DNA of 53,898 bases, the filler included, from Catajapyx aquilonaris (lineage: Eukaryota): the NCBI GenBank assembly GCA_000934665.2. It is 2 parts of 2 records of this genome, joined end to end, with 100 filler letters (N's around TTAATTAATTAA, not from the genome) between each part and the next. Parts side by side here need not be neighbours in the genome. Positions count along the whole stretch, not along the records: positions 27,015 to 53,898 come from JYFJ02005154.1; 1 more part is not named here. One strand, 5' to 3'. Shown here piece by piece: positions 4,280 through 53,898 of this stretch; within the stretch, counting starts at the first letter, position 1; each line of letters opens with the position of its first letter. A program made the position numbers and the translations under genes. The notes below the pieces were generated by a model, which was given only the letters and a program-made list of their open reading frames with translations, was not told the origin of the DNA and searched no databases.

Positions 4280-8566
<4,287 letters not shown>

Positions 8567-29640: not shown

Positions 29641-30043
29641 TGGTCTCCGAAAACTAATAACTAATGCATTTATTACCTCAGTAATGGAGCCAAAATCGAA
29701 AAAATTAACTAACGCAATCTGTGTTAAACCCTCGATGAAAAATTCTGCTTAACTCATCCGCCTCCCTGCATTGCTAAATCTAGTCACCAGCACCCCAGCA
29801 CCTGAGAAGTGCACATTGCGATATTTATACGGTATTCTGTTTGAATGAGCGCCTTCTGAGTGTGGGGACCGAGTTGAGGAGGTGGCCGCCAGAGAGCTCT
29901 GCCAACGGGACTGACCATGTAGTTCTGAGTGGGTCGCCAGGTGACACTATCGGCTTCAGCCACCTGCACTCTAGCGGGCGCAAGTCTGCACTAGCGGAGA
30001 TTTGCCCTATCTCTTGGTTTGTCTGAAACATATCCCGTCTCCG

Positions 30044-30168
30044 GTTGGCACCATTGGCGACTGTCACTTGTTCGTAATCCAAGATGGCGCCCACATTTGT
30101 GCTGAAGAGGAAATTTCCAAGTGTAATTAGTGTTGATTAGACGTGTAATTACACTGGGAGGAGTGCAG
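30044..30168 (+). promoter_or_regulatory. Conserved ZNF promoter/5'UTR exon cassette (copy 1 of 9)
   Basis: GTTGGCACCA(C/T)TGGCGACTGTCACTTGTT...CAAGATGGCG (YY1/Pho motif)...GTGTAATTACAC...GGAGTGCAG|GTAA. Other copies: 31780-31905, 33502-33635, 35670-35796, 37851-37984, 41881-41999, 44304-44448, 49353-49479, 53597-53720. Confidence 0.8.
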
Positions 30169-30254
30169 GTAAGTAGAGTTGTGCTGCAGGACATGCTCTG
30201 TACTGTAAGAGAAAGTAAGAGGTTGGGATTCGTATATTGCAGGGGTACAGGACC

Positions 30255-31026
30255 ATGTCGTTGGCCGTTAAGAAGGAACCGGATGATGAAGACGAGAGCA
30301 TAACGGTGGAGGAGACCTGGCAGTTGCCCTTGAAGGAGGAGACCCCATCATGCTTCGATGGGGACTCCACTCTTATAGAGGACACTCTACGTGAGATCAA
30401 GAAGGAGGCAGCCGAAGAGGAGGAAGAAATGGTGGCGGCCACGTCCAGTCCCGTCGAAGATGAAGACGACCCATTAGCACTTGGCACCAGTGGGGTATGT
30501 CATCTGCTGAAATTACAATATAAATTAGCATTAAACTTAATTAACATTTCAGATCTTGCTAGAGACTGCTGGGGATGACGATGCGGCACAGGAGGAGAAG
30601 CAATGCCCGATTTGCTGGAAACAAATTAACAGTTCAAAGAGATTAAAAACTCACGTAATAAGTCATGCGAGGAAAGACGCATTTCAGTGCGACGTGTGCC
30701 AGAGATGTGTTAGGGGTGCAAGTAATTTCAGAGATCATATGCGAATTCATACGGGAGAGAAACCGTTCTGTTGTGAGATGTGTCGGAGACGTTTTCGTCT
30801 TGAAAGCCAATTGAAAAGTCACATGCGAATTCATGAGGATCAGAGTCCATTTCCATGTGAAGTGTGCAATAAAAAATTGTGGGATGCAGGGAATTTGAAA
30901 CTCCACATGCGCATTCATACTCCAGAGTATGTAATTACTTTAAAGCCATCTCACAGTGTTGCACCATCAAGCTCTTTAAAGTATAAAACGGGCAAACATG
31001 GCATCAGCATGAAAATATCAACGTAG
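30255..31026 (+). CDS. C2H2 ZNF cluster gene A (acidic N-terminal exon + 4 fingers)
   Basis: Exons 30255-30494 and 30553-31026, phase-0 GT-AG intron; CxxC-x12-HxxxH repeats with a TGEKPF linker. Confidence 0.85.
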
Positions 31027-31137
31027 CTCATGAAAGTGGTGTTACTATTTCAAAATCATACTCAAATTGCAGCCATAATTTATCTGCCCAAAGATCATGT
31101 GAGATTTTGCAAGCGTAATTTGCAATATCGTTTACAA

Positions 31138-31266
31138 GCGGTAGATTCATCAAAATGTCGTAAGTCAAATTTTCGTCGTAACCGGTAGTAATCATAGTTA
31201 CTGATATTTAACAATGGTTACGACCGGTTACGACCAAGATTTACGACCATTATATGAATCCACCCC
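31138..31266. mobile_element. Small palindromic MITE (PIF/Harbinger-like)
   Basis: GGTAGATTCAT...ATGAATCCACC ends; internal GTCGTAACCGG / CCGGTTACGAC symmetry. Confidence 0.6.
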
Positions 31267-31572
31267 CAATTGACTCTACAAATGTCGTTAGTAATGTTGA
31301 TCATGACACTCTCTGCTGGATTGTCTTGTACTGTACTGTGTACATAATTTGCAGCATATTTGGGAATTATTCATGTTGGGAAAAGAAGGTTCATTTTTTT
31401 TTGTAATTATGCTGGGAGAAGAATAATTTGTTCTTTGCTTCCATTTAAAAAAAAAAAATCTCTGCACTTTTTGTATCAAAAAGACTATAAACCATTTCAA
31501 AACCATATTAACGGGCGATATTTATATTCTGCCATGGCTGAAAATCCTTTTCGTCATACGTACGAATAGTTA

Positions 31573-31604
<32 letters not shown>

Positions 31605-32087
31605 GATCTTGCAACCCTGTTTTGCACAATGTGGCAACCCTTACTATTGGAATTATTCAATATGAGCCAACGCTTCACGAATATAAATTTTAGCCGATTA
31701 ACATTTAAAACACAAAGCTTTAAAACAGAATGCATTTAATTAATTAATTAATAGTTAATTAATAAGCAATTTTTGTGTGGTTGGCACCACTGGCGACTGT
31801 CACTTGTTCGAAATCCAAGATGGCGCCGATTATTTTGTTTCGAAGCAGATTTTCTGAGTGTAATTAGTGTTAATTAGACGTGTAATTACACTGGGAGGAG
31901 TGCAGGTAACTAGTGGTGGGCTGCTGGACATGCTCTGTACACTCACAGAGAGTAAGTGGGGCTCAGTTGATGAAATGTAGAAGTAGGCCTCTGTTTAACT
32001 TAACATGTCATGAGGAACGTTCCTTCCAATGCAGCTTATCCACTATTTGGGATTAGCCTTTGACCTGATTAGGTGACCTGCAGGGCC

Positions 32088-32955
32088 ATGTCGTCGTTGG
32101 AAGTGAAGACGGAACCGGAGGAAGAAGATGGGAGCATAACAGGGGAAGGGACGGGGCGGTTAACCATGAAGGAGGAGACCCCTTCATGCTTCGATGATGA
32201 ATCCACTCTTAAAGAGGACACTCTCCATGAGATCAAGCCGGAGGTAGCCGAAGAGGAGGAAGAGATGGTGGTGGACACATCCAGTGTGGTCAAAGAAGAA
32301 GACGACCCATTGGGACTCGTTTTAAGGGTTAGTCGGGTATGTAATCTGCTGGAATTGCAACATAACTGATGTACTCTGATCCGCATTTCAGATCAAGCAA
32401 GAGACTTCTGAAGATGGAGAGAATGGGAGGAGCAAATATTGGTGCAGTTTTTGCAATAAAAAAATTCGCAGTTGTCATATGAAAATTCACATGCGAATTC
32501 ACACTGGAGAGAAGCCATACATTTGTGAGGTGTGCCAGAAGAATTTTTGTGATCCAAGTAATTTGAAAGCTCACATGCGGATTCATACGGGAGAGAGACC
32601 GTTTAGCTGTGAGGTGTGCATGAAGAAATTTCGCAGTTCAAGTTATTTGAATACTCACATGCGAATTCATGCTGGAGATAAACCGTATCATTGTGAGGTG
32701 TGCCAGAGAGATTTTTGTGATTCGAGTGGGTTGAAAGCTCACGAGCGAATTCATACTAGGGTAGAAAAACCATATGATTGTGAGGTGTGCCAGAAGAAAC
32801 TGTCTAGCGCAAGAAGTTTGAAAACACATATGCGAATTCACACTGGAGAAAAACCATTTCAATGCAATATGTGCCCTGAAAAGTTCCGCAGTGCAAGCAA
32901 TTTGAAATATCACAGGCGACTTCACGAACCGCATGTTGAGCCATCCAATAATTAA
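32088..32955 (+). CDS. C2H2 ZNF cluster gene B (acidic exon + 5 intact fingers and 1 shortened finger)
   Basis: Exons 32088-32336 and 32392-32955 join in frame (CGG|GTATGT ... TTTCAG|ATC). Confidence 0.85.
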
Positions 32956-33813
32956 TTTAGCAATGCTTTAAAAAGAATGTATAACAGGCAAACATGACCT
33001 CAGCGTAACGCATGCTGTTGCGACATTAACGCTCAATATGAAAAGCATATTTTTCTGTGCGTGATAATGTCATATTATGCAAATGCACGAATGATTTAAA
33101 AAAAAATATTTGTACAGGACATGTAAGAAACACAATAAATTATTTAAAAAATAAATTAATGCACCCTGATTACTCGTTATTATTGCATCTGTATCTACAC
33201 CTGTTCCTCTTCATTTAATACTATTAATAGCGCATCCTACAAATAGTGCATCATCTGGAAATTAATGCATTCCACATGCCAATTAACTTGTAATCAACTA
33301 GTAATTAATAATTAATAAACTACAGTATAGCCAACATTCCTTAATTTGAATAACCTGGGTTCAAAAATGTTGCCAACAGATAATCAACATTTAATTATCT
33401 TTAAAGCGCAGAACTTAACATCCACAAAATATGGTTAAACCCAAGGCATTTAGTTATCTAAATAACAATTAATAAGCGGTTTATTGTTATTAAGAGTGTC
33501 TGTTGGCACCATTGGCGACTGTCACTTGTTCGGAAATTCCAAGATGGCGGCCGTGCTTACTTTTTTTTTTTTAAGTGATAATTTCCATGTTAATTAGTGC
33601 TAATTAGACGTGTAATTGCACTGTGAGGAGTGCAGGTAACTAGAGTTGGTCTGCAGGACATGCTCTGTACTGTAACAGAGAGTGTCAGTTGAGAAAATGT
33701 AGGAGTAGGCCTGTGATTAACTTAATATGTCATGAGGAAATGTTCCTTCCAATGCAGCTTATCCAACTATTTGGGATGTGACCTGACCTTTTTAAGGGTG
33801 ACCTGCAGGGGCC

Positions 33814-34882
33814 ATGTCATCTTTGGGAGTGAAGAAGGAACCGGAGGAAGATGGGAGCCGGACGGTGGAGGAGACGGCTTCATGCTTCGATGGTGATGAT
33901 TCCACGGAGGACGCTCGGGGTGAGATCAAGCCGGGGGCAGCGGAGAAGAGGGAAGAGATGGTGATGGCCGCGTCCAGTGCCATTGACTCATTCGGAGATA
34001 TTTTTGGAAGGGTTAGTGTTGTATGTTTATATACGCAAAGGTGATAAAAGCACAGCCTGAACCGGTGCTCTGTTTTACGACGTCAGGCGTTTGTGTCCGA
34101 CACGACATTTTATGCTCAACATTGCAACCATGCAAATTTTGTTAATGAGTGTTTATTGCATACATCCAAATGCATGTAATGACAGCACCAAAGAAGGAAA
34201 AGACACTTGCGTATGCTTCACCCAATCCGCGCCACATAATAGAAATTGATATACTCTTAATTCGGCATTTCAGATCTGGCAAGAGACGGCTGGAGTTGGA
34301 GTAGACGAGAAATGGATCCAGGAGGGGAGGAACAAAAATTGCTGCCATATTTGCCAGAAAATATTTCACAGTTCAAGTCAACTGAAAACTCACATGCGAT
34401 GTCATGCGGGGAAAAAAGCATTTCAATGTGACGTGTGCCAGAAATTTTTTCGTAGTGCGAGTAATTTGAACCAGCACATGCGAATTCATGATACGGGAGC
34501 AAGACCGTTTAATTGTGACTTCTGCCAGAAAAGATTTCTATCGTCAAGTAGTTTGGAATCTCACATGCAAAGTCATGTGGGAGAAAACCCTTTCCAATGT
34601 GAGGTATGCCAGAAAGAATTGTGTAACGCAAGAAGTTTGAAAACTCACATGCTGATTCATACGGGAGAGAGTCCGTTTCAGTGCGAAGTGTGCGATAAAA
34701 AATTGTGCAATGCAACTAGTTTGGAACAGCACATACGAATTCATACCGGAGAAAAGCCATTTAATTGTGACGTGTGCCAGAAAAAGTTCCGCAGTTCAAG
34801 TCACTTGAGATTTCACATGCGAATTCATACAAAAGAGTACCTATTTGTTTTTGAGCCACGCAATAAAAAATTTAGTGATTGA
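33814..34882 (+). CDS. C2H2 ZNF cluster gene C (shortened acidic exon + 6 fingers)
   Basis: Exon 33814-34011 (or 34020) and 34274-34882, phase 0. The intron is about 200 nt longer than in paralogues, and the DDPL motif is lost. Confidence 0.8.
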
Positions 34883-35978
34883 CCATCTCGCTTTTAAAAA
34901 TAATAACGCATGCCTTAGTATTAAAAATATCAAAATTACTCGTGCAATTTGTACATGCTTGTGGCGACTGATTTCACAACAATGCAGGCATAAATAATAA
35001 TGTCAGATTGTGCACTAACTGTTCGCAATATATTTTACAACATTATATCAGATTTAGAGTTGTGATTTTTTTCTTTTTTTTAATGTACAGGACATGGAAG
35101 AAATAAAATTGCTTAATCCACCTTACTGTGTCTGTATGTTCAACACCTTTTTTATCGATACGCTACTAGGCTACAGCACGTTTTTCGCACAGTACGTTTC
35201 CATGACCATGTAGTAACAATGATCAATAATTTGTTTTTTGATGCCTTGGGACAAACAAACAAACAAACAAGAGCAGTTCAGAATATGAAAAACAAAACTT
35301 GATCAAAAATAATAGCGCCTCAATTAAACCGTACATACAAGTCCGCTTACATGTTTTCGCGGTCGCTGGTTAAAGTTTGTAGATTATTATGACGCTGCAA
35401 GACCTAGTGTAGGTCGGAAGTTGACATCTGGAGTATGACTGCTGAAAAAAAAACAAAATTATGTATACATGATTATGTTGAACTTGTATAATTAATTGTG
35501 ATTAACTTAGTTTTGGATATCCCGGGTTTAACACTGTTGCCAGCAGATACGTAACATTTAATTTGCTTAAAGCAAGTACTATGTTTACCGCATCTAACAG
35601 TTACACACAATGTACGAAATTAATTAATTAATAGTTAATTACTAGGTTAATAATTCGAATAGATTTTGTGTTGGCACCGCTGGGCATCGTCACTTGTTCG
35701 GAATTCCAAGATGGCGCCGATTATTTTGTTCCGAAGCAGATTTTCCGAGTGTAATTAGTGTTAATTAGACATGTAATTACACTGGGAGGAGTGCAGGTAA
35801 CTAGAGTTGGGCTGCAGGACATGCTCTGTACATTCACAGAGAGTAAGTGGGGCTCAGTTGAGAAATTGTAGCAGTAGGCCTGTGTTTAACTTGACATGTC
35901 ATGAGGAACTTTCCTTCCAATGCAGCTTATCCACTATTTGGGATTAGCCTTTGACCTGATCAGGTGACCTGCAGGGCC

Positions 35979-36928
35979 ATGTCATTGGCAGTGAAGAAGG
36001 AACCGGAGGAAGAAGACGACGGGAGCGTAACGGTGGAGGAGACATGGCAGATAACCGTGAAGGAGGAGACCCATTCATGCTTCTACGATGATGAATCCAC
36101 TCATAATGAGGACACTCTGCATGAGATCAAGAAGGAAGAAGCTGAAGAGGAGGAAGAGATGGCGGTGGACACGTCCAGTCCCGTCGAAGATGAAGACGAC
36201 CCATTGAGAGTCGCTTCTGGAAGTACTAGCGGGGTACGTAATCTGCTGTAATTGCGATACATTTACACTAAACTGATTCACATTTTCAGATTATGCAAGA
36301 CACCCTAGCAGATGGAGTGGAAAAGAAGCAGATCCAAAGGAAAGAAAATTGCTGCCATATTTGCCAGAAAATTTTTCGGAGTTCAACTAATTTGAAATTT
36401 CACATGCAAATTCATGCGGGAGAAAAAGTATTTGAATGTGACACGTGCCAGAAGCGTTTCGGTTGTGCAAGTAAGTTGAAAAGGCACATTATGATTCATA
36501 CGGGAGAGAGACCATTCGTATGTGACGTGTGCCAGAAAGTATTTCGATGCTCAGACAATCTGAAATTTCACATGCGAATTCATACGGGAGAAAAACCGTT
36601 TAATTGCGAGGTGTGCCATAAGAGATTCTTAGACGCGCACGGTTTGAAACGTCACATGCCAGTTCATAAGGAAGAGAGAGCGTTTAATTGTGAGGTGTGT
36701 CAGAAGCAATTTCGTGATTCAAGAAGTGTGAAAGCTCACATGCAAATTCATACAGGAGAAAAAATGCTTCATTGTGAGGTGTGCCTCAAAAAATTGTGTA
36801 ACGCAAGAAGTTTGAAAACTCACATGCAACTTCATACAGGAGATAGCCCATTCAATTGTGAGGTATGCCATAAAAAATTGTGCAATGCAACTAGTTTGAA
36901 ATATCACATGCGAATTCATGCTGGATAG
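35979..36928 (+). CDS. C2H2 ZNF cluster gene D (acidic exon + 7 fingers)
   Basis: Exons 35979-36233 and 36290-36928; the stop falls inside the linker (GGA TAG) and is followed by a decayed finger. Confidence 0.85.
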
Positions 36929-37471
36929 AACATGTGAAATGTATTGGACCAGTTTCATAGTTCAAGTAAAGTGCAATATCAAATGCAATATTTCATACAA
37001 CATGCGATTGATCACATGTCAACTTCACACATATGTTGTGCATGACACTCACTGTTGTACAGTATTGTCTTGTACTGTGTAGATATAAGTTGCAACGTTT
37101 GCATGTTGTGAAAAGTGAATCCAAATTTTGAACTCATGATGTGTGAGAGGAGTTTCGTTCCTATTCAGATGTAGCGAGTTTGTATTACCTTACGACGAAT
37201 CATATTTTATTTTTTGTACATAGCAAAATCGCATTAATAAACATTTCAACCGAAATATCTATAAGACCGATTTAGAAAGCCTCGGATCAATATTCTGACT
37301 GTTGCGATCAACATATTGAGCCCCCTTTTTTCTTACAGCCATCCCCATTGTTGCTGCCAACAATATTACACACATAAGTCAGTTGCACCAAAAGTCCCAA
37401 TAATTAATTAGGAACAATCAACATTGCAATAATATATTGTTGACACAATTCCACCTCTTTCTCCCTGGTCT

Positions 37472-37473
<2 letters not shown>

Positions 37474-37567
<94 letters not shown>

Positions 37568-37640
37568 GATCTAACAGGAAAGGAAACTGATTTATAAAAT
37601 AATCATCATCATGTTAAATCATCATTAAATCATAATTCAA

Positions 37641-37677
<37 letters not shown>
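37474..37677. repeat. Compound (ATT)n(ATC)n microsatellite
   Basis: Direct reading; a second ATC run at about 37643-37677. Confidence 0.9.
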
Positions 37678-38167
37678 GTTTGAATTTCCCGCGGTAAAAA
37701 CTGTTGCCAACAGATTAACCTTCAATATTTTTAATCAACGGAAGTTAACATCCGCAGCATTTAAATTAAATTTCGATTGAATTTAAATTAACAATTATTT
37801 ATAAGTAAATTGTTATAAGTACTTCTAGCTAATTATGACTAAGTATGTGTGTTGGCACCACTGGCGACTGTCACTTGTTTCTACGATCGAACATCCAAGA
37901 TGGCGGCGATAATTTTGTTCCAAAGCAGATTATCAAAGTTTATTGCGTTTAATTAGACGTGTAATTACACTGGGGCTACTGCAGGTAACTAGAGTTGGGC
38001 TGCAGGACATGCTCTGTACTCTCAGAGAGAGTAAGAGGCTGAGGGTGGTATGAAAATGTAGTAGTAGACCTGTGATTAATGTAACATGTCATGAGTAACG
38101 TTCCTTCCAATGCAGCTTATCCACTATTTGGGATTAGCCTTGACCTGATTAGGTGACCTGCAGGGCC

Positions 38168-39119
38168 ATGTCATCATTGGGAGTGAAGAAGGAACCGGAG
38201 GAAGAAGAAGATGGGGGCATAACGGTGGAGGAGACCTGGCAGCTTCCGTTGAAGGAGGAGACCCCTTCGTGCTTCGATGGGGACTCCACTCTTATAGAGG
38301 ACACTCTCCATGAGATCAAGAAGGAGGAAGCCGAAGAGGAGGAGGAAGCCGAAGAGGAGGAGGAAGCCGAAGAGGAGGAGGAAGCCGAAGAGGAGGAGGA
38401 AGCCGAAGAGGAGGAGGAAGCCGAAGAGGAGGAGGAAGAGATGGTGGTGGACATGTCTAGTGCGGTCGCAGATGAAGACGACCCATTGGGAGTCGCTTCC
38501 GGATGGGCTAGTGGCGTACGTAATCTGCTGAAATTTCAATAAAAAAACACTAATCTGATTCACATTTCAGATCGTGCAAGATGGAGTAGAAAAGGATTGG
38601 ATCCAGAAGGCATGGAACACCCGTGGGCGCAAAAGAAATCCACTTGAGTGCAGAATATGCCACAAATTATGTGGTTCTCCGCATATGTTGGAAGTTCACC
38701 TGTTTAATCATCGTGAAAAACATTGCTGCTATTTTTGCCAGAAAGAATTCTGTAGTGCAGAAATTTTGAAAATTCATATGCAAAGTCATACGGGTGAGAG
38801 AATATTTCGGTGTGAAGTCTGCGCGAAATATTTTAGCGGTGAAAGTTATTTTAAAATGCACTTGCAAACCATTCATAGGTTGGAGAGTACAAACATATTT
38901 CAATGTGACGTGTGCAAGAAAAAATTCTCTCATGCAGCTACTTTGAAACGGCACATGAATCTTCACGTGGAAGAGAGTTCTTGTGAATTTCAATGTGAAG
39001 TCTGCAAGAAAAAATTGGGTTGTGAAAGTAATTTGAAACTGCACATGCGAATTCACACAACACAGTATGTTAAAATTGAAGACATCTTGAAAAAAACGCT
39101 AAAGGTCCACCTCAGGTGA
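38168..39119 (+). CDS. C2H2 ZNF cluster gene E (acidic exon with EAEEEE expansion + 5 fingers)
   Basis: Exons 38168-38515 and 38571-39119, phase 0. Confidence 0.85.
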
Positions 39120-39409
39120 AACTGCGAAATGCCAATTTTAAATTTCGAAGGCGTAGGTTCTTCAGAGATATGTAGCTAATTTTTTGACATAAAGTGGACC
39201 TTGTTAGTTCTTCCCCTGAGGTCTTCAATTAGTGTTCAGCCATCCCGTAAAAGATTGAATGAAAATCATTATAAAGTTATTATGAAAAAATTGATAAAAA
39301 CTCTGTAAGAGATCATTTCAGATTTTGCAAATTCACAGTTTGCTATTAAATTTGCAACGCCTGTGGTTGATAACTTTTTGATTCTGCACATGTTGTGCTG
39401 AGCTACTTA

Positions 39410-39554
39410 GGGCGGTTTCTCGAACAGTGGTTCAAATGTAAACCGGGTTCAAAGCCAGTTTAATCCCTGATTTGATTGTTGTTAGGCTGTTGTCAAGGGT
39501 TTAGACCGGCTTTGAACCGGGTTTACATTTGAACCACTGTTTGAGAAAACGGCT
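39410..39554. mobile_element. PIF/Harbinger-type MITE
   Basis: TTA on both sides (39407-39409, 39555-39557); inverted arms AACAGTGGTTCAAATGTAAACC / GGTTTACATTTGAACCACTGTT. Confidence 0.8.
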
Positions 39555-39595
39555 TTAGTGTTGTAAAATTATGATTTATTTTTTTTTAAAAAAAA

Positions 39596-39939
39596 ATAAT
39601 AATAATAATAATTGTGGGGGTAGTGCTTCACCTTTCGGCATTCGTCACGGACCTTTATTATTTGATCGTACATAGTGTATACAAGTTGGAGCCATTGAGA
39701 AGCGCCCAGGCCCACGGGCAGGATGACAGGAGGGGATGTGCAAGTGCAGTGCATCTGACGTGGTGGCCATTTTTAGGGAACTCCCCCGGGTGGTTTAGTC
39801 TGTGGAAATACCACCCGAGACGAAGCCTGAGGTGACCCTGAACTCTGCACGAGATGAAGGGGGTGTCCCCGGGCTGGGATCGAACCCGGGACCTTAACAT
39901 CCATGGGCGCGTACGTTACCGCAGCGCCACTCCGCCTCC
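39596..39939 (-). mobile_element. tRNA-derived SINE (copy 2)
   Basis: Minus strand begins GGAGGCGGAGTGGCGCTGCGGT (A box) ... GGTTCGATCCC (B box); same body as 9300-9546; AAT repeat at the 3' side. Confidence 0.8.
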
Positions 39940-40324
39940 TCATAAAATTATGATTTAACATGATGATGATTTAGAAATTAGTTTCCTTGGCAACGGGAAA
40001 TGAAACTGTCAACATCCCATGTTGTTGTCCAATTAGAATCGCATCATCGTAGCATAAATGGCAATGTATTCTACATTGTTGTCACCCTCATTTCCCGCCC
40101 CCAATGAGAAAAAAGTCTACTTGAATCATGTTCGCGTGATTTGCCAAACGTGTTTTAAGCTGGGAGTAGTATTATGTTCTTGAGCTTAGATGTATAGTGT
40201 TTTTTTATTGAGTAAGACAAATCAGATATTTATATGTGAACATCCTGAGATGACACTAATAAATATTTCAAGCGAAACTTCTGTCGATCATTTAGACTAC
40301 GCATTACCTGTGTTCGGACACGCA

Positions 40325-41365
40325 GGATAAGGTGAAGCAGGAGGCGAAGGAAGAGATGGTGTTGACCACGTCAAGTGCGGTTGAAGACGAGTCGTTACTC
40401 GAAAGGCTAGTGGCGTATGTAATATGCTGAAATTGAGATATATTTTCACTAAACTGATTCACATTTCAGAACGTGCAACAGACCGCTGATGATGGAGAAG
40501 AAGAGAACAGGATCCAGAAGGGACGCGGGAATCTGCTCTGGAAGGAATTCTTTTGAGTGCAGAAAATGCCAGAAATTATTTGTTACTCACCAGGAACCGG
40601 AGGAAGATGAAGATGGGAGCATAACAGTGGAGGAGACCCCTTCATGCTTTGATGGGGACTCCACTCTTAATGAGGACACTCTGGGTGAGATCAAACAGGA
40701 GGCAGACGAAGAGGAGGAAATGGTGGTGGACACGTCCAGTCCCGTCGAAGATGAAGATGGCCCATTGAGAGTTGCTTCTGGAAGGGTTAGCAGGGTATGT
40801 AATATGCTGCAATTGCGATACATTTGCACTATTAAATTGATTCACCTTTCAGATCACGCAAGAGACCGCAGAAGATGGACTTAAAAAAGACAGGGTCAGG
40901 AAGGGAAAGAACAGAAATTTCTGCCGCATTTGCAAGGAAAACTTGTATACTGCAAAAAGCTTGGAAATTCACATGCTGATGCATGAGGGAAAAAGTCTGT
41001 TTGATTGCGAGGTGTGCCGGAAAGAATTTAGTCATTCAAACACTCTGAAACGGCACATGCTGATTCATAAAAAAAATTGTCCATTTCAATGCGACGTGTG
41101 CAAGAGAATATTGTGTAGTCCACAAACTTTGAAGGAACACCTACGACTTCATACAGGAGAGAGACCTTTAAATTGTGAGAGGTGCCAGAAAAGATTTATT
41201 CGTGCGCAAGATTTGAGAAAGCACGTGCAAATTCATAAGAAAAAGCAAGCGGAAGAGTGTTCATTTAAATGTGAAGTGTGCAAGAAAATACTGGGCTGTG
41301 CAATCAATTTGAAACTACACATGAGAATTCATACGACACATGTTAATATTTGTGTCAAGCCGTAA
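40325..41365 (+). pseudogene. Rearranged ZNF unit F (two partial units fused; 5 fingers; no promoter cassette)
   Basis: Tail of an acidic exon (about 40325-40414), an intron, then the start of a finger exon (40470; stops in frame). A truncated finger CRKCQKLFVTH is fused at about 40590 to a second acidic exon lacking its ATG; donor 40795, acceptor 40852, finger exon 40853-41365. An ORF from ATG 40489 could still splice in frame. Confidence 0.6.
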
Positions 41366-42181
41366 ACAATTTAGTTGTCCACCATCCGGTTGTTAAATAT
41401 ATGTAAAACAGGCAAACAAGGCCTCACGTAAGTCATGAAAGTGTGGTACATGCTGTGACGACATGATTTCAGAACCATTTAAGGGTAACTGATTTGTCTG
41501 ATATTTTAATTTAATTTGCAATTGTTCATCACACTTGAACTCGCGACTGATGACATTTCAACTCGGTCACGTTGTGCTCAGTAATATGGTGCATATAATT
41601 AACTGTTGTATCGTCTGGTAACATGTACATAATACCTGCACATTTTAGTAATACATGTTGTGAAAAGTGTCAATTTTTTAAAAAATAATTATGCTGTAAA
41701 TAAATTGAATTTTTCATATTCCCGCATTTTTGCCAACAACTGTCATGGCCGCCAACAGAACCTTAGAGCATTATATTTTTGAGGCTAATTACTGCACATC
41801 CACATCATCCATTAAATATGAGCAATGTCATTCATAATTAGTTAGTTAATTAATTACTAAGTGAATTATAATAAGGTTCTGTTGGCATCATTGGCGTCTG
41901 TTTGGAATTCAAGATGGCCGCCATGTTGCTGTTCCAAAGAGGAAATTTCCAAGTTAATTAGTGTTAATTAGACTTCTAATTACACTGGAAGGAGTGCAGG
42001 TAACTAGAGTTGGGCAGCAGGACATGCTCTGTACTCTCACAGAGAGTTAGTGGGGCTCAGTTGTGAAAATGTAGCAGTAGGCCACTGTTTAACTTGACAT
42101 GTCATTAGGAACGTTCCTTCCAATGCAGCTTATCCACTATTTGGGATTAGCCTTTGACCTGACTGGGTGACCTGCAGGACC

Positions 42182-43219
42182 ATGTCGTCGTTGGAAGTGA
42201 AGAAGGAACCGGAGGAAGATGGGAGCCGGATGGTGGAGGAGACCCTGCAGATAACCGTGAAGGAGGAGACCGCTTCATTCTTCGATGGTGAGGATTCCAC
42301 TCTACAAGAGGACACTCCGGGTGAGATCAAGCAGGAGGCAGCCGAAGAGGAGGAAGAAATGGTGGCGGACACATCCAGTACGGCTGAAGAAGACGACCCG
42401 TTGGAAAAAAATACATTGGAGTGCAGTAAATGCCAGAAATTATTTGGCACTCTGCATGAATTGGAAGTACACATGTTAACTCTTAGTGAAAATAATTGTT
42501 GCCATATTTGCCAGAAGAAATTGTTCAATGGAAGTAGTTTGAAAAAGCATGTGCGAATTCATACTGGCGATAGACCATATCGTTGTGGGTTGTGTCCGAA
42601 AATGTTTCGTCAATCAGGTAGTTTGAAAGCCCACGTGCAAAGTCATACGGGAGAGAGTACATTTCAGTGTGATGTGTGCTGGAAAAAGTTTAGTCAATCG
42701 AGATGTTTGAAAACGCATATGCTGATTCATACGGGAGAGAGGCCGTTTCAATGTGAGGTCTGCCAGAACAAATTTCTTAATTCAAGTAGTTTGAAAAAAC
42801 ACATGCTAGTTCATACCGGAGAAAAACCATTTGTATGTGACGTGTGCCAGAAAAGATTTGGTGAGTCAGGTAGTCTGAAAGCTCACGTGCGAATTCATAC
42901 GGGAGAAAAACCATACGTTTGTGAGGTGTGCCAGAAAAAATTTAGTCAATCAAGTAGTTTGAGAATTCACATGCGAAGTCATACGGGAGAGAGACCCTTC
43001 ACTTGTGACGTGTGCCAGAAGAAATTTCGCATTTCAAATCATTTGAAGCAGCACATGCGAATTCATATGGGAGAAAGTCCATTCCATTGTGAGTTGTGCT
43101 CGAAAAAATTTCGCCAATCAAGTAATTTGAAAGATCACATGCGAATTCATACAACAGAATATCTAAATATTATTGAGCCATGCCATGAAAAATTTAGTGA
43201 CGCACCATCAGGCTCTTAA
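42182..43219 (+). CDS. C2H2 ZNF cluster gene G (single coding exon; 8 intact fingers + 1 degenerate)
   Basis: Continuous ORF: the acidic region ...EEDDPL is joined directly to EKNTLECSKC...; the family's phase-0 intron is absent. Confidence 0.9.
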   Translation: MSSLEVKKEPEEDGSRMVEETLQITVKEETASFFDGEDSTLQEDTPGEIKQEAAEEEEEMVADTSSTAEEDDPLEKNTLECSKCQKLFGTLHELEVHMLTLSENNCCHICQKKLFNGSSLKKHVRIHTGDRPYRCGLCPKMFRQSGSLKAHVQSHTGESTFQCDVCWKKFSQSRCLKTHMLIHTGERPFQCEVCQNKFLNSSSLKKHMLVHTGEKPFVCDVCQKRFGESGSLKAHVRIHTGEKPYVCEVCQKKFSQSSSLRIHMRSHTGERPFTCDVCQKKFRISNHLKQHMRIHMGESPFHCELCSKKFRQSSNLKDHMRIHTTEYLNIIEPCHEKFSDAPSGS

Positions 43220-43719
43220 AAATATTATGGCCTCATCATGAAAATATCAATGTAACTATTGAAAGTGGCACATTACATATTTTCACAACCTTGCCGAAAA
43301 TGCAAGCGTAATTTCTTGTGTGTAATGTAACGTCAGATTTTGTTAACACAGTTTGCAATTTAATTTGCAGACTTACAACACGTGCTTGATAACATTTTGA
43401 CACCACATGTTGAGTTCAGTAAATGTGGTGCATAACACTTGGGTTCTGTACACTGTACATAAGTTGCACATATTTTGTATTATGTTGTAAACAGGGAGTA
43501 CATTTTTAAAAAAAAATCCGCACTGCTTACGCTTGCAAAAAGCAGAAACACGCACTACTGGTATTACTTAGCTGTGTACAGTACACGTAATTCTGCATCC
43601 ATACAGAATGTCAAAGTCAATGTGTTTTATCACAACTGCTAATAAACTATTTATTTGGAGCAAACATTGCATTGTTGCCTCTTATTTGAATTTTGCGGAT
43701 TTAACAATGTTGTCAGTGG

Positions 43720-43965
43720 TATTTTTTTATAAATTTTATTATTATTTATTATAGCCTATTATTTATTACTTTATTACTTATTATTTTATTATTTTATTAT
43801 TTATTGGTAATTATTTTATTATTTATTTATTCTTTTATTACTTATTAATTATTTATTATATTATTAATTATTAATTATTTATTTACTTTACTAGTAATTA
43901 TTAAATATTAATTTTGTTATTAATTATTTGTTATTAATTTATTTTATTAATTTATTCCATTTTAT
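43720..43965. repeat. AT-rich low-complexity (TTA-like) tract
   Basis: Direct reading. Confidence 0.8.
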
Positions 43966-44630
43966 TAGAACAGTCACTATTAACATCCTCAGCATTTGGT
44001 TAAAAAAACACCACAATTTAATTAGATGGCGCCATCCCTCATTCTGGATTATTTTCCACTACTTAAGACAACTTAAAAGAGCAATTTATTATTTAAATCG
44101 TAATCAATGCAAAGTATCGATATACCGATTCCAGAATCGACCTGGGCGATAACATCGTATCGATATCGCGCAATTGAAAGGACTATAAATTTTAGCCTTT
44201 TTAAATTAAAAAAAGAGTCAAACATTCGCTTCATTTGGTTAAATTCAAGACATTTAATTAGCTTAGTAATAATAAGTGAAATAATAATTAGAACAATTAA
44301 TGTGTTGGCACCACCGCACCGATTGGCACTACTGGCGACTGTCACTTGTTTGGAATTCCAAGATGGCCGCCATGCTTCTGTTCTAAAGAGGAAATTTCCA
44401 AACTTATTAGTGTTAATTAGACGTGTAATTACACTGGGAGGAGTGCAGGTAACTTGAGTTGGGCTGCGGGACATGCTCTGTACTCTCACAGAGAGTGACT
44501 GGGGCTCAGTTGAGAAATTGTAGCAGTAGGCCTCTGTTTAACTTAACATGTCATGAGGAACGTTCCTTCCAATGCAGCTTATCCACTATTTGGGATTAGC
44601 CTTTGACCTGACTGGGTGACCTGCAGGGCC

Positions 44631-45681
44631 ATGTCGTCGTTGGAAGTGAAGAAGGAACCGGAGGAAGAGGAAGATGGGGGCATAACGGTGGAGGAGACCT
44701 GGCAGCTTCCGTTGAAGGAGGAGACCCCATCATGCTTCGATGGGGACTCCACTCTTATAGAGGACACTCTCCGTGAGATCAAGAAGGAGGGAGCCGAAGA
44801 GGAGGAACAAATGGTGGTGGACACATCCAGTGCCGTTAAAATAGAAGACGACCCATTGGGAGGTGTTTCCGGAAAGGTCAGTGTAGCATGTAATCTTCTG
44901 AAATTGCGATATAATTTACGTGTTCACATTTCAGATTGAGCAAGACACCGCTGAAGACGATGTAGAAAAGGATGGCAACCAGAAAATAAGCGACACGGGA
45001 ATCTCCTCTAGAAGAAATCCACTTGAGTGCAGAATATGTCGGAAATTATGTGGTTCTCTGCATAAATTGGAAATTCATATGCTAATTCACAGTGAAAAAT
45101 ATTGCTGCCTTATTTGTCAGAAACATTTTCCAAAGTCAAGTCATTTGAAATTTCACATGCAAAGTCATTTGAGAGTGAAAGAAATTAATTGCGAGGTGTG
45201 CCAGAAGAAATTGTGTAATGCAAAATATTTGAAAAGGCATATGTTATTTCATGCGGGAGAGACGCCGTTTAATTGCGAACTGTGCCAGAAAAAATTTGTA
45301 AGTTCAAGTGGTTTGATAAAGCACATGCGAATTCATACGGGAGTTAAACCATTTCAGTGTGACGTGTGCCAGAAAAGATTCTGTGATTCAAGCAGTTTGA
45401 CACAGCATATGTTTATTCATACGGGAGAGAAACGATATCATTGCGAGGTGTGCCAGAAAAAATTTCACCGTTCCCGTGATCATCAGATTCACCTGCTTAT
45501 TCATGCCAACGTAAAACCATTCATTTGTGAGATATGTAAGAAAGGTTTTCGTTATCCACGTAATTTGAAACAACACATGTTTATTCATACGGGAGAGAGT
45601 CCATTTCAATGTGAAATGTGCAAGAAATTTTATTGTAGCGCGTATAGTTTGAAAGTTCACATGCGAATTCATACAGCATGA
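44631..45681 (+). CDS. C2H2 ZNF cluster gene H (acidic exon + 8 fingers)
   Basis: Exons 44631-44876 (AAG|GTCAGT) and 44935-45681; an out-of-frame relic finger follows the stop (about 45682-45760). Confidence 0.85.
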
Positions 45682-46021
45682 TTTCAGTGTGAGGTGCGCC
45701 AGAAGAAAAAAAAAATGTGTAATGCAAGTAGTTTGGAAACTCACTTGCACATGCCACTTACAAGTTATAATAAATGTAATTAGGTTTTTTTTCATTACGA
45801 AATTTTTTTTACCTTCATTTTCACGTGGATCGTATGATCTCGACATGACTGTACACACAAAATGGCCGACCAAATTTTTCTGCGCAATTTTTTTTTCTGA
45901 ATTTTATTAACCAAAATCCAGCCTGGATTGAAAAGGGTGAGTTCCACTTTCCTAGAGATATTGTCCAGACTCATCTCATAAAACTAATATCCTCCCACAG
46001 GGTGTCCCATCATAAGTGAAG

Positions 46022-48530
46022 ATGACCATTGAACAAGAAGACGTGTGCTGCGTTCCCACTTGTCCCAACCACAATCATTCGGGACAGTCCCATTCATTTT
46101 ACTTCCCATTTCCTGCCAGCTCCCATTTGCTGCACCAATGGATGAGGATCATTTTAGATCCCCACAACTCAAAGGTCTGCTCGGACCACTTTGCATCGAA
46201 GGACATTGTTGAAGGACAAGAGTCTTCGTTGGATGATGGAAAAGGACAAAGGGTGAAGCTGAAGGAAGGTGCGGTTCCTCACTTCGTACTGAGGAAAGGT
46301 ACTTGTTGTTGGTACTTGTAAGACGACGGAACGGGCATGTTTCAACAGATACGACTAAGCCATAGTGTGGTTACTTTTAGCGATGCAGACTGAAAGTACA
46401 GCAACTCTGAGCAGTCCTACGCCAACGGAGGAAACGCCAGCAACTCCGAGCATTATTCCTACACTAGCGGAGGAAACGCCAGCAACTCCGAGCATTGCTA
46501 CGCCTGCGGAGGGTACTAAAAATTCCAGGAAGTCTCCGAAGCGATGGTCAGCGGCTAGAAAGCCAGTCGCAGTCGGCAAAGGGACAGAAATCGCTGAAAC
46601 CGCAGCAGTAACGTAATGATCTGTACTAACAATAGTGTGCACAGTTGAATAATGTTTGAATATGTGTTACAGTGCAAGTGACGATCTGGCGGAAGACGAT
46701 CGAGCTGCTGATGATGAGCCAGGCAGTGATGACGAAGAACAAGATGTGTGCACGGCGAGTCAAGTGGCGGTGGATGGATTGCCTTGGGTGTGCAGGAAAT
46801 GTCAGCAGGGTTTCTCCGTAAGTGAAGACCTCACGAGACACTTGTCCACGACCCACAATGTCATTGTGTTTCCATGCGAGGATTGCAGGAAGCAGTTTCA
46901 GACGGAACGGAATTTGAAGGTTCACAAGAAGTTCTGCGTCAAGCTTGGAAAAATTGCGGCTCCAAATGGCAAAAGAAACGAGCAGTCAATGAAGGTTGAT
47001 TCAAATCATGCCAATATTTCAAGGAAGTTTGCAAGTGCGAGAATTAAGATTGAACAGATTGGCCAAAGTGCTCAATGTGAAGCACACCAAGCTGAACCTA
47101 ATAACAAATTCAGCTGCGGTAAGAACAATGCAATGAAGAGCAATCAGAATTCCGATGTGAAGAAGAAACAACAAGTGTTCCAGTGTGAAAAGTGCGGCAA
47201 ACACATGAATACCAGGTGGCAGTACGCGTACCACGTACGGCGAGCATGCCCAATGATCAAATCTGTGGCCGAAAGACCTTGTAAGCACAAATGCGAGACG
47301 TGCGGAGAGGGTTTTAGAAGCAAAAAGAAGCTGGCGGATCATTCCTGGGTGCACTACAAGATGTTCAAGTGCCAGACGTGTGGGAAACGATACTTCCTTA
47401 AGCCCAATTTCATGCGGCATCTTCAGACTCACCTGGTTCAGAAGGCGCATGTTGTGAAGGACACTGTAATGTGCGAGACTTGCGGGAAGACTTTTTGGAG
47501 TGGTAAGTTGCTGGAGAAGCATAAAGCGGTGCACAGCGAGAAGCCGTACAAATGCGAGACATGTGGGAAGACATACCGAACTGATAAGTCATTGAAGAAA
47601 CACTGTACAACACATATGGAGCAGTACATGTGCGAAACCTGCGGCAAGATGTTCAGGAATCATTCTGCGCTGCGGAGTCACCACATTTGCCACAACACTG
47701 AACGGCCGCATGTGTGCGAAATATGCGGGATGTCCTTTCTTTTAAGATCTGCTTTGGTGATCCATCGCAGGAGGCATGAAGGTGACAAGCGTTACCCATG
47801 TTCCATGTGCGACAAGGCATTTTACACCAGGTCATCAGCAAAGCTCCACCTCATGCTGCACACTGGGGAGAAACCATGGAAATGCGAGACATGCGGGAAG
47901 CAGTTCAGACTCCGACAAGTTCTGAACAAGCACGTGAAAATACATGCGCCAAAGCCGCACCAATGTGGCACATGCGAGAAGAGGTTTGCCACGAAAGAAA
48001 TGCTGGACATGCATCAGATAGATCACGAGCAGACTCCAGCACTGTTTACATGCAAATGCGGGAGAGGTTTCACCAAGAAGATAAGCTTTAATCGCCATCA
48101 GTCCTATCACTCAAGAGCTGCTCGCACATCGGTGAAATCCGAGAGGACCGCATCTGTTCAGCGGAAAAAGAAAATGTACAAGTGTGCCAGATGCGGTAAG
48201 GTACTTACCACTCAGAACGGTCTCACCTTGCATGAGCGGACACACACAGGCGAAAAGCCTTTTGTGTGCACCACTTGCGGTAAGGCCTTCAACAACTCAA
48301 CGGTACTGACGTACCATTTAAGGACGCATACAGGAGAGAAGCCGTACAAATGCATCATTTGTGAGAAGGGATTCCGCAGCAGCCAACTTCTGACGCATCA
48401 TCTCATCGTGCACAAAAAGAAGCGCCAGACAAAAGCTGATGAACTGATACGTCCGCAGATGATCAAGCCGGACAGTCCGATGAAAGAAAGAAAGACTCGA
48501 AAGTGGAGTGACAATATTCATGCAAAGTAA
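46022..48530 (+). CDS. THAP-domain + about 16 C2H2/C2HC zinc-finger protein
   Basis: Exon 46022-46298 encodes CCVPTC...FPFP...QW...VCSDHF...LKEGAVP (THAP signature). Exon 46381-46612 is Thr/Pro-rich with a duplicated EETPATPSI. Exon 46673-48530 carries an acidic stretch and the fingers. Upstream exon with CAAAATGGCCG (45858) and donor at 45937; acceptor at 46000. The exon 2/3 junction is the least certain. Confidence 0.85.
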
Positions 48531-48863
48531 ATCAGATCATAATACGTCTGATGGATCTGTCGTGTCCGTAATTATCACTTTTTCAGTTCAGTTAAAACAG
48601 TTTTATTAATATTTATGATTAATTTTCAGTGATTCATCCAATGCATTTTTATTCACCATTAAATCCTGTACAACCAGTAACTTTTTTAAAAATTTATTCC
48701 ACTTTTGCACATTCCATCGGTTAAATATATCTGACTAATATTATTTAAATGCGAAATTGTCAAATAAAATCATGTCGTAAAATATATTTTTTTGTACTCA
48801 TTCACATTCGTTCTGATATTCGATCTGATATGGCTTCTCACCGGCGGGGTAACATATCGTCCA

Positions 48864-49235
48864 GAGTCGAAATGGTTTCTCCCCGATCCTGTCAGCCTCG
48901 AAATGGTTTCTCCCTGGTCATGTCAGCCTCGAAATGGCTTCTCCCCGATCCTGTCAGACTCGCAATGGTTTCTCCCCGGTCCTGTCAGACTCGAAATGGT
49001 TTCTCCCCGGGACTGTCAGACTCGAAAAGGTTTCTCCCCGGTGATGTCCGACTCGAAATGGCTTCTCCCCGATCCTGTCAGACTCGAAATGGTTTCTCCC
49101 CGGTCCTGTCAGACTCGAAATGGTTTTTCCCCGGTCCTGTCAGACTCGAAATGGTTTTTCCCCGGTCCTGTCAGACTCGAAATGGTCTCTCCCCGGTCCT
49201 GTCAGACTCGAAAAGGTTTCTCCCCGGTTATGTTA
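48864..49235. repeat. 31-bp minisatellite, 12 copies, core antisense to the ZNF linker codons
   Basis: Unit GACTCGAAATGGTTTCTCCCCGGTCCTGTCA starting at 48864 with period 31; the reverse complement contains ACC GGG GAG AAA CCA TTT (T-G-E-K-P-F). Confidence 0.95.
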
Positions 49236-49660
49236 CAACTCATTTTTACAGTTAACTGTACTGTTGCTACTTACAGGTGTATTGTCATTAAAATAGCCAA
49301 AGGAAATCATGTAAAATTAATTATTATATTAGTATCCTTTTCTTTTGGGACGGTTGGCACCACTGGCCATCGTCACTTGTTCGGAATTCCAAGATGGCGG
49401 CCATGTTTCTGTTCGGAAGCAGATTTTCCAAGTGTAATTAGTGTTAATTAGACGTGTGATTACACTGGGAGGAGTGCAGGTAACTAGAGTTGGGCTGCAG
49501 GACATGCTCTGTACTCTCACGGAGAGTGAGTTGGGATCAGTTGAGAAATTGTAGAAGTAGGCCTTTGATTAACTTAACATCTCATGAGGAACGTTCCTTC
49601 CAATGCAGCTTATCCACTATTTGGGAATAGCCTTGACCTGATTAGGTGACCTGCAGGACC

Positions 49661-50812
49661 ATGTCGTCGTTGGAAGTGAAGAAGGAACCGGAGGAAGAAG
49701 AAGATGGGAGCATAACGGTGGAGGAGACCTGGCAGCTTCCGTTGAAGGAGGAGACCCCTTCGTGCTTCGATGGGGACTCCACTCTTATAGACGACACTCT
49801 ACGTGAGATCAAGAAGGAGGCAGCCGAAGAGGAGGAGGAGGAAGAGATGGTGGTGGACATCTCCAGTGTGGTCGCAGATGTGGAGGACCCACTGGGGGTC
49901 GTTTCCGTAAAGACTAGTGGGGTCCGTAATCTGCTGAAATTGCGATATAAATTTTCACTAAACTGACACACGTTTCAGATCGTGCGAGAGACTGCTGTAG
50001 ATGGAGTAGAAAAGGATGGGATCCAGACGGGACGAGATACAAGAATCGTCTCTCGAAGAAATCCACTTGAGTGCAAAATATGCCAGAAGTTATGTGGTTC
50101 TCTGCATAAATTGGAAATGCACATGTCGATTCACAGGGAAATATATTGCTGCCATATTTGTAAGAAAAAATTTCCAATGTCGAGTCATCTGGCATTGCAC
50201 ATGCATAGTCATACAGGAGTTAAACCATTTCAATGTGAAATGTGCCAGAAAAAATATCTTTACCCCAGCTTTTTAAAAAAGCACATGCTGAGTCATACAA
50301 GAAAGAAACCATCCGTTTGCGAGGTGTGCCAGAAAATGTATTGCGGTGCGAAAGGTTTGAAAATACACATGCGAATTCACACGGGAGAGAGACCATTTAG
50401 TTGTGAGATGTGCCCGAAAAAATTTCGCTCTTCAGGTAATTTGATAACTCACATGCGAAGTCATATGGGAGAGACACCATTTAATTGTGACGTGTGCCAG
50501 AAAAAATTTCGTGATTCATATGGTTTGAAAGTTCACATGCGAAGTCATACAGGAGAGAAACCGTGTCATTGTGACGTATGCAAGAAAACATTTCGTTACG
50601 CACAGGGTTTGAAAGTTCACATGCGAATTCATACAGGTGAGAAACCACATCAGTGTGCAGTTTGCCCAGAAAAATTTACTCAATTAAATAGTTTGAATTG
50701 GCACATGCGATATCATAAAGGAGAGGGACCATTTCATTGTAAAATGTGTCCAGAAAAATTTCTCAGTCCAGGTAGTTTGAAAATTCACATCCAAAGTCAT
50801 ACTGGACAGTGA
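49661..50812 (+). CDS. C2H2 ZNF cluster gene J (acidic exon + 9 fingers)
   Basis: Exon 49661-49921 (alternative phase-0 donor at 49907) and 49979-50812. Confidence 0.85.
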
Positions 50813-51109
50813 CCATTTATTTTGGAGGCGTGGCGTAAATTATTTTAGCAATTCACACCACTCCTGTATTGCTATGCACTATGTGCATGGATAAGTTGCA
50901 ATATTTGCATTTTTAGTAACACATTGTGAAAAGGGCGGAGTCTATTTTTTAATACTCATGCTGTGAGAGGAATTAATTTGTTATTCTGGCCGTGTAACCA
51001 TGTTTGTACTGTACGACTATAAACTGTCTCTATGATGTCCAATCTATATTTTCTACTTAGAAGTTTGGTGTAGTCTAATAAAATCTGCATGACAATTTTT
51101 TAAACAGAT

Positions 51110-53678: not shown

Positions 53679-53898
53679 TTAGTGCTAATTAGACGTGTGA
53701 TTACACTGGGAGGAGTGCAGGTAACTAGAGTTGGTCTGCAGGACATGCTCTGTACACTCACAGAGAGTGAGTGGGGCTAAGTTGATGAAATGTAGAAATA
53801 GGCCTCTGTTTAACTTGACATGTCATGAGGAACGTTCCTTCCAATGCAGCTTATCCACTATTTGGGATTAGCCTTGACCTGATGAGGTGACCTGCAGG
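53597..53898 (+). promoter_or_regulatory. Promoter/5'UTR exon and intron of the next ZNF unit (runs off the window)
   Basis: Ninth copy of the cassette plus the conserved intron, ending GGTGACCTGCAGG just before the expected ATG. Confidence 0.85.

Follow-up and report, generated by a model that had tools for sequence, protein, structure and literature searches.

A recurrent acidic head exon with constrained psi-K-x-E sites, a candidate SUMO-acceptor effector region, in a zinc-finger gene cluster of Catajapyx aquilonaris

KRAB is a folded, TRIM28-binding domain of about 75 amino acids (aa). The pathway that it serves uses SUMO, with auto-SUMOylated TRIM28 recruiting SETDB1 (PMC7915335; statements on published work, here and below, follow excerpts of the cited sources). 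For the fish FiNZ-ZNF proteins, co-immunoprecipitation with TRIM33 is reported (PMC11603059), and the describers of FiNZ state that they do not know whether its head recruits heterochromatin factors (PMC10547256). A third system, Panoramix of Drosophila, has an N-terminal silencing region that is acidic and disordered and holds four psi-K-x-D/E sites; E1 and E2 suffice to SUMOylate this region, which recruits Sov, and K-to-R substitution abolishes silencing (10.1101/2021.07.27.453956). Here we describe a cluster of head-to-tail zinc-finger (ZNF) genes in Catajapyx aquilonaris (assembly GCA_000934665.2), which lies on the + strand of a 53,898-nucleotide (nt) stretch of two joined records (the window, meaning the whole stretch that was analyzed, filler included) and runs from about 30.0 kb to its end. 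These genes share an acidic N-terminal region, the acidic head, in which psi-K-x-E, the SUMO acceptor consensus, recurs. In our comparisons the head appears homologous to none of the known effector exons, and it would unite the idea of a constant effector exon with that of repression through SUMO sites.

The layout of the cluster is that of the KRAB-ZNF clusters of tetrapods: tandem genes, a constant N-terminal exon, and finger arrays that diverge fast. It differs in that SUMO would here sit on the DNA-binding protein itself and not on a bridging cofactor. With FiNZ the acidic head shares a short Glu-rich N-terminal sequence without similarity to known domains, placed on its own exon 5' of a single finger-array exon in large, tandem, lineage-specific families (PMC10547256). 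This is a likeness of design only. The FiNZ head is 28 aa long against about 70–85 aa for the acidic head, and repression of transposable elements by FiNZ has been shown by morpholino knock-down (PMC10547256), while for the acidic head a transposon target would be conjecture. Like Panoramix, the head is an acidic, disordered orphan sequence with several psi-K-x-D/E sites set in acid, features that in Panoramix have been shown to make a direct Ubc9 substrate, with SUMO required for tethered silencing (10.1101/2021.07.27.453956). Unlike the head, Panoramix owes its recruitment to Piwi and RNA and not to fingers of its own, is single-copy rather than tandem, and needs a Sov-binding LxxLL helix, of which none was seen by eye in the acidic heads; there is no sequence relationship between the two. 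The SUMO sites of Sp3 and MGA (IKEE), and NDSM sites generally, share the four-residue consensus, its place in a disordered region, and the acidic run downstream, but these are single sites in single-copy factors and not an array of three or four sites forming the head of a gene family. The acidic head is best placed as a non-homologous variant of the KRAB/FiNZ design. A search of the open full-text literature, subscription-only papers lying outside its scope, returned no account of arthropod zinc-finger clusters whose heads are rich in SUMO sites and none tying FiNZ to SUMO, and the word SUMO is absent from the two FiNZ papers (PMC10547256 and PMC11603059).

When the peptides of nine exons were searched against the entire window by six-frame tblastn (E 0.05), the acidic exon was recovered nine times, together with one fragment and no further copy:

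30255..30494, + strand: acidic exon of unit A, 80 aa, with VKKE, LKEE and IKKE
32088..32336, + strand: acidic exon of unit B, 83 aa, with VKTE, MKEE, IKPE and VKEE
33814..34020, + strand: acidic exon of unit C, 69 aa, degenerating, with site 2 deleted, IKPG, no DPL and a 253-nt intron
35979..36233, + strand: acidic exon of unit D, 85 aa, with VKKE, VKEE and IKKE
38168..38515, + strand: acidic exon of unit E, 116 aa, carrying an (AEEEEE)n insert
40308..40391, + strand: acidic-exon tail fragment 5' of unit F
40594..40794, + strand: partial acidic exon of unit F, 67 aa, without ATG, promoter block or sites 1 and 2, keeping IKQE
42182..42403, + strand: acidic head of unit G, 74 aa, running into an 8-finger array that ends at 43219
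44631..44876, + strand: acidic exon of unit H, 82 aa, with VKKE, LKEE, IKKE and VKIE
49661..49921, + strand: acidic exon of unit I, 87 aa, with VKKE, LKEE and IKKE

Measured up to the inferred donor, the exons span 69–116 aa, close to the 65–115 aa estimated in a first-pass annotation of this DNA; the partial exon of unit F has 67 aa. In seven units (A–E, H, and I) a phase-0 GT donor and a TTTCAG/AT acceptor (the slash marking the splice boundary) separate the head from the fingers and preserve the finger frame, the splice sites being predicted from sequence signals. The donor is GGG/GTATGT-like in most units and AAG/GTCAGT in unit H, and the intron measures 55–58 nt except in unit C (253 nt). 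In these units the head occupies its own exon, in line with the first-pass annotation, which made gene G the exception; in G the head is fused directly to the fingers, with neither the intron nor the beginning of the finger exon present. Unit F is a composite (40308-40884) of an acidic-exon tail, an intron, a frameshifted exon head, a finger start, and then an acidic exon lacking its first 8 codons, and is probably a rearranged pseudogene. The insert in unit E is encoded in frame by a perfect 18-nt tandem repeat (6.5 copies, 38322-38438) and is a recent microsatellite-type expansion within coding sequence.

To the tools that we used, the head is an orphan. The first-pass annotation recognized no KRAB, ZAD, BTB, or SCAN domain in it, and hmmscan of seven heads and the whole of gene G gave no Pfam-A match to the head at E up to 1, these domains included (KRAB, PF01352; zf-AD, PF07776; SCAN, PF02023; BTB, PF00651); the same scan scored the fingers and a neighboring THAP domain as expected. 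A ZAD has four zinc-binding cysteines, and in the alignment of the nine heads there is at most one Cys per head. Nor did a match to a described domain, the outcome named beforehand as speaking against a new module, appear among PDB sequences (best E 1.4) or among 1.84 billion representative proteins searched with a nine-head profile (HMMER, 0 matches at E 0.001 or better). The head, searched as a query against longer proteins, gave 533 word candidates, of which none reached E 0.01, and residues 1–95 of gene G drew 39, none at E 0.1 or better. The best ESM Atlas value was 0.90, to an unnamed cluster at low recognition; the head is absent from the N-termini of six arthropod ZNF matches; and against 120 retrieved ZNF proteins the head profile reached at best 9.5 bits (hmmsearch). 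As evidence of absence these blanks are weak, given a short, compositionally biased profile with little power at that database size. The word-search collection includes arthropod and fish ZNFs, and the proteins of the host species are apparently absent from it (gene G failed to retrieve itself).

AlphaFold2, run on the head alignment, predicted no secondary structure (mean predicted local distance difference test score, pLDDT, 61; predicted template modeling score, pTM, 0.14). Asp and Glu make up 30–46% of each head, which also holds one W, 1–3 F, and 1–7 L. On this prediction the head is best described as an intrinsically disordered region with short linear motifs and not as a folded domain. 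CtBP (PxDLS), HP1 (PxVxL), Groucho (WRPW, eh1), and LxxLL motifs were not seen by eye in the alignment; the nearest approach to LxxLL is L-I-E-D-T-L. SUMO-interacting motifs (SIMs) were considered and rejected. With ELM-like patterns (psi-psi-x-psi or psi-x-psi-psi with an acidic/Ser flank), the parallel form occurs only in A and I (2/9) and the antiparallel form in none, while a bare hydrophobic core is present only in B and I, and the conserved MVVD(T/M)SS has no fourth hydrophobic residue except in I. The first-pass suggestion that hydrophobic-acidic patches resemble SIMs does not hold, canonical cores being found in just 2/9 heads.

The psi-K-x-E sites fared differently. The alignment of the nine heads matched the site-by-site description given in the first-pass annotation, its exceptions C and F included. 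At site 1, all eight units that possess the N-terminus have VKKE or VKTE. Site 2 is LKEE, MKEE, or VKEE in 7/9, C and F having lost it through an identical 9-residue deletion between two EET repeats, and site 3 is IKKE, IKPE, or IKQE in 8/9, with IKPG in unit C. A fourth site occurs only in H (VKIE) and B (VKEE). The terminal (E/D)DPL, also claimed earlier as kept, is present in EDDPL-like form in 8/9 heads and reads GDIF in unit C. Among the six positions after the E of each site, acidic residues number 3–5 at sites 1 and 3, 0–1 at site 2, and 2 at site 4. The SUMO consensus with a downstream acidic run is known as the NDSM form (PMC5727262), and sites 1 and 3 are of this type.

We compared these counts with shuffles of each head's own residues. 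Seven of the nine heads hold 3–4 psi-K-x-E sites against 0.2–0.37 expected (P 0.0001–0.003), with P 0.12 for C and P 0.04 for F, and the pooled count is 25 in 743 residues against 2.2 expected. The order of residues matters: K-psi-x-E, E-x-K-psi, and E-K-x-psi occur 0 times each in the pooled heads, against about 2.1–2.2 expected. An apparent excess of psi-x-K-E (13) arises because the second K of VKKE and IKKE completes that pattern. The heads thus have the SUMO acceptor consensus in a region predicted to be disordered, with 3–4 sites in 7/9.

Two observations temper these counts. Because the heads are paralogues, the excess represents one ancestral three-site sequence, improbable by chance at about the 10^-3 level, and not nine independent tests; and site 2 is deleted in 2/9 units. 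Pooled over 36 pairs of heads, the proportion of synonymous differences (pS) is 0.32 and that of non-synonymous differences (pN) 0.14, a ratio of about 0.44, so the acidic exon is under purifying selection and not merely young. Together, the nine columns that make up psi, K, and E at sites 1–3 have pN 0.031 against 0.156 in the other 70 columns, and only 0.26% of random nine-column sets are equally low (permutation P 0.0026). The three site-lysine columns have pS 0.28 and zero replacements, and the x columns of the motifs are free to vary (K/T, K/P/Q; pN 0.158). Parsimony on a neighbor-joining tree, which lessens the double counting inherent in pairwise comparison, counted 3 changes over the nine motif columns and 96 over 69 other columns (P 0.0066). 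Conservation of motif codons relative to flanking codons had been named beforehand as a test that could refute a SUMO role, and it came out in favor of that role: the psi/K/E codons show about five-fold fewer changes.

These tests rest on nine short sequences, and the SUMO sites are not the sole conserved feature of the head, because other columns are equally invariant; both points weigh against giving the sites the central role. The nine-head alignment has 20 invariant columns, most of them outside the three motifs (E-E-T, S, F, D, S-T, M, and S-S among them). An alternative is that a dedicated cofactor docks on this invariant core (EET-x-SCF-D-x-D-ST...ED...EIK; M..D.SS), as TRIM28 does on KRAB, with the lysines kept for the interface or for some other modification. 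The invariant columns and the TRIM33 co-immunoprecipitation reported for the analogous fish FiNZ-ZNF (PMC11603059) favor it. AlphaFold2, however, predicts no docking structure or helix, the pattern of free x positions with fixed psi, K, and E is that of the SUMO consensus, and the same four-letter grammar recurs in non-homologous ZNF heads (below), which a lineage-specific interface would not predict. We consider a dedicated docking site unlikely.

The conserved segment extends beyond the coding sequence of the head. In a BLASTN comparison of unit H with the window, similarity between units is limited to one block, which starts about 310 nt 5' of the ATG, takes in the acidic exon and short intron, and extends over the first ~50 nt of the finger exon. 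Mean pairwise identity is 81% in the upstream block, 75% in the intron, and 57% in the finger-exon head, and falls further upstream to 40%, which is unalignable. The promoter block is more conserved than the synonymous sites of the acidic exon. The blocks are as follows:

44320..44630, + strand: promoter/5' untranslated region (5'UTR) block of unit H, in which the CAAGATGGC box stands at 44359 and nucleotides 44449-44577 form a putative 5'UTR intron
30041-30216, + strand: matching promoter block of unit A
31781-32087, + strand: matching promoter block of unit B
33503-33813, + strand: matching promoter block of unit C
35671-35978, + strand: matching promoter block of unit D
37852-38167, + strand: matching promoter block of unit E
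41899-42181, + strand: matching promoter block of unit G
49351-49660, + strand: matching promoter block of unit I
53596-53898, + strand: promoter block of a cut tenth unit

The eight promoter-bearing units and the cut tenth unit have a common layout, with the CAAGATGGC box followed about 90 nt on by a GCAG/GTAACT donor. The putative 5'UTR intron that begins there is 122–131 nt long (74 nt in unit A) and ends at a putative acceptor 53 nt 5' of the ATG (12 nt in unit A), so that the acidic exon would be the second exon of each gene. Three TAATTA-type repeats are kept in the shared block, and the CAAGATGGC box has a YY1/Pho-like core. One cassette, made up of promoter, head exon, short intron, and the beginning of the exon that follows, is reused before diverging finger arrays, the same logic as in KRAB-ZNF and FiNZ-ZNF clusters.

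Such similarity in noncoding parts opens another way of accounting for the heads, and it counts against inferring function from likeness: with promoter (81%) and intron (75%) about as alike as the exon, gene conversion of the whole cassette could help to keep the copies alike. Taken to its limit, the motif sites would have no specific function. Recent duplication and gene conversion would hold the cassette alike, and the sites, which are short motifs tracing to one ancestral sequence, would be a frozen accident of a K/E-rich ancestor. Four observations make this very unlikely in our judgment. At a synonymous divergence of 0.32, the ratio of non-synonymous to synonymous change (dN/dS) comes to about 0.44; constraint on the motif columns is five times that on the remaining ones, with lysine codons changing only synonymously; conversion would not selectively spare the x positions; and an order-specific enrichment of the motif is found in independent ZNF families.

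The finger exons have evolved otherwise:

44935..45681, + strand: finger exon of unit H, 8 fingers
30553-31026, + strand: finger exon of unit A, 4 fingers
32392-32955, + strand: finger exon of unit B, 5 fingers
34274-34882, + strand: finger exon of unit C, 6 fingers
36290-36928, + strand: finger exon of unit D, 7 fingers
38571-39119, + strand: finger exon of unit E, 5 fingers
40853-41365, + strand: finger exon of unit F, 5 fingers
49979-50812, + strand: finger exon of unit I, 9 fingers

The nine unit genes hold 4–9 fingers each. Mean identity is 64% among the heads and 46% among the finger exons, and over 76 fingers (two orphan arrays of 7 and 12 included) entropy peaks at five positions of the recognition helix, bearing out the earlier picture of a constant head joined to variable fingers. 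These five most variable positions are, by finger geometry, presumably the DNA-contacting ones. The fingers of unit H are 40–47% identical to fish ZNFs, that is, about as close to them as the finger exons of the cluster are to one another, and the best match of the finger array is a damselfly protein (E 1.6e-99; next, 5.8e-73); finger similarity is a poor taxonomic guide.

Several features of the arrays stand apart from the nine units. Two further finger arrays on the + strand, at 51104-51904 (7 fingers) and 52497-53678 (12 fingers), are without an acidic exon or promoter block of their own, and the second starts with an exon head and acceptor of the usual kind. Both may be additional exons belonging to unit I, or else orphans. 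After the last finger, units A, C, and G have a C-terminal tail of the form T-x-E-Y-[LV]-x-[IV]-x-[EK]-P, which is looser in E and F, and the tail of unit E holds another psi-K-x-E (VKIE).

The motif excess, the constraint on the lysines, the NDSM form of sites 1 and 3, and the predicted disorder lead us to favor, tentatively and at somewhat under an even chance, the reading that the acidic head is a SUMO-acceptor repressor effector region. In the mechanism that we propose, the C2H2 array, whose diversification at the helix positions is observed, would bind DNA; the head's exposed lysines would be direct targets of SUMO conjugation by Ubc9; SUMO would then recruit SIM-bearing co-repressors, such as Sov, SetDB1/Wde, MEP-1/Mi-2, and Sfmbt of Drosophila; and the target would be silenced. 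The proposed steps each have a precedent in arthropods, beginning with Panoramix. SUMO-dependent recruitment of SetDB1/Wde has been described (10.1101/533091), and in Drosophila cells SUMO-modified Sp3 recruits MEP-1, Mi-2, and Sfmbt (PMC2745409). In a human screen, deletion of the SUMOylation motif weakened repression in at least 149 of 166 motif-holding repression domains, and a 10-aa tile with IKEE was sufficient for repression in human cells (10.1101/2022.08.26.505496). The first-pass interpretation, a SUMO-dependent repressor module, is therefore retained in part: the lack of a known domain, the motif constraint, and the constant head with variable fingers speak for it, and its SIM component falls away (2/9).

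Other evidence pulls in the opposite direction. psi-K-x-E is a short, low-information, common motif; 12.3% of non-hit tiles in the human screen also hold it (10.1101/2022.08.26.505496); and a screen of Drosophila repressive domains showed no significant enrichment of SUMO sites in repressive over other fragments (PMC9890238). Aromatic residues and leucines placed among acidic ones would suit an activation domain as well. The head might then be an acidic activation or bifunctional domain, in which W, F, and L among Asp/Glu (TWQLPL, SCFDGDSTLIEDTL) contact co-activators and the psi-K-x-E sites either temper activation, an effect called synergy control, or are incidental. Its composition and disorder agree with this. 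Human activation domains need aromatics or leucines scattered among acidic residues, and bifunctional domains were found (10.1101/2022.08.26.505496); the authors of the Panoramix work note that its acidic, disordered silencing region resembles activation domains (10.1101/2021.07.27.453956). Yet W24 is not kept throughout: unit B has G in its place, unit G has L, and a deletion removes it from C and F, whereas the site lysines are never replaced. Since deletion of SUMO motifs in the human screen usually abolished repression and rarely changed activation (10.1101/2022.08.26.505496), the constraint on the lysines fits repression better, and we regard an activating or bifunctional head as improbable.

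Further evidence for a role of the motif comes from other zinc-finger proteins. We examined 120 retrieved poly-ZNF proteins, of which 108 have a pre-finger head of at least 40 aa. These 108 heads hold 195 psi-K-x-E against 33.6 expected, a 5.8-fold excess that is descriptive and not a P value, many of the proteins being mutually paralogous. Permuted motif orders and psi-K-x-D stand at 0.6–1.4-fold in the same heads, and the finger parts of the 108 proteins show no psi-K-x-E excess (25 against 31.9 expected). With taxonomic groups assigned by hand from protein names, the counts are 23 against 3.4 for cypriniform proteins, 119 against 19.5 for other fish, 37 against 6.2 for unnamed sources, and 5 against 0.5 for three insect proteins. 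Five cypriniform FiNZ-type heads carry 3–4 sites each (IKEE; MKIE/IKIE; VKQE/VKHE; LKEE), matching the density in the acidic heads. The likeness is one of grammar only, because hhalign detected no homology between these heads and the acidic head (probability 0.5% over 8 aligned columns). With the motif grammar shared, the parallel to FiNZ-ZNFs drawn in the first-pass annotation proves apter than when it was first proposed.

The window also holds other features. Between units H and I lies a THAP-ZNF gene without the acidic cassette (46016-48530, + strand), with a THAP domain at 46016-46321 (Pfam E 9.2e-14) and an open reading frame at 46653-48530 with 15 zf-C2H2 stretches (Pfam). A 31-nt satellite (11.8 copies, 89% match, 48862-49228) separates that gene from unit I. 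Upstream of the cluster there is an adenylate kinase exon at 8222-8566 on the + strand (Pfam ADK, E 3.4e-09), and an 89-N gap lies near 26.9 kb. The kinase exon and the C2H2 genes with their short spliceosomal introns fit DNA of eukaryotic origin.

The acidic head bears on how fast-evolving zinc-finger families outside tetrapods reach the silencing machinery, and it offers a concrete hypothesis, namely that SUMO is attached directly to a small set of invariant lysines. The order-specific 5.8-fold excess suggests that the idea may extend well beyond the Catajapyx genome. In a broader and more speculative form, which we rate as possible though rather unlikely, psi-K-x-E arrays in acidic, disordered heads would be a convergent, general route by which independently expanded poly-ZNF families reach heterochromatin silencing without a folded KRAB-like domain. 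This arthropod family, cyprinid FiNZ, and many fish ZNFs would be included, the DNA-bound factor being SUMOylated directly by Ubc9 on chromatin and recruiting SIM-bearing co-repressors. If true, this would supply a mechanism for FiNZ, which its describers state to be unknown (PMC10547256). Should the SUMO reading fail, what remains is a lineage-restricted effector exon, hitherto undescribed, that a sizeable gene family shares.

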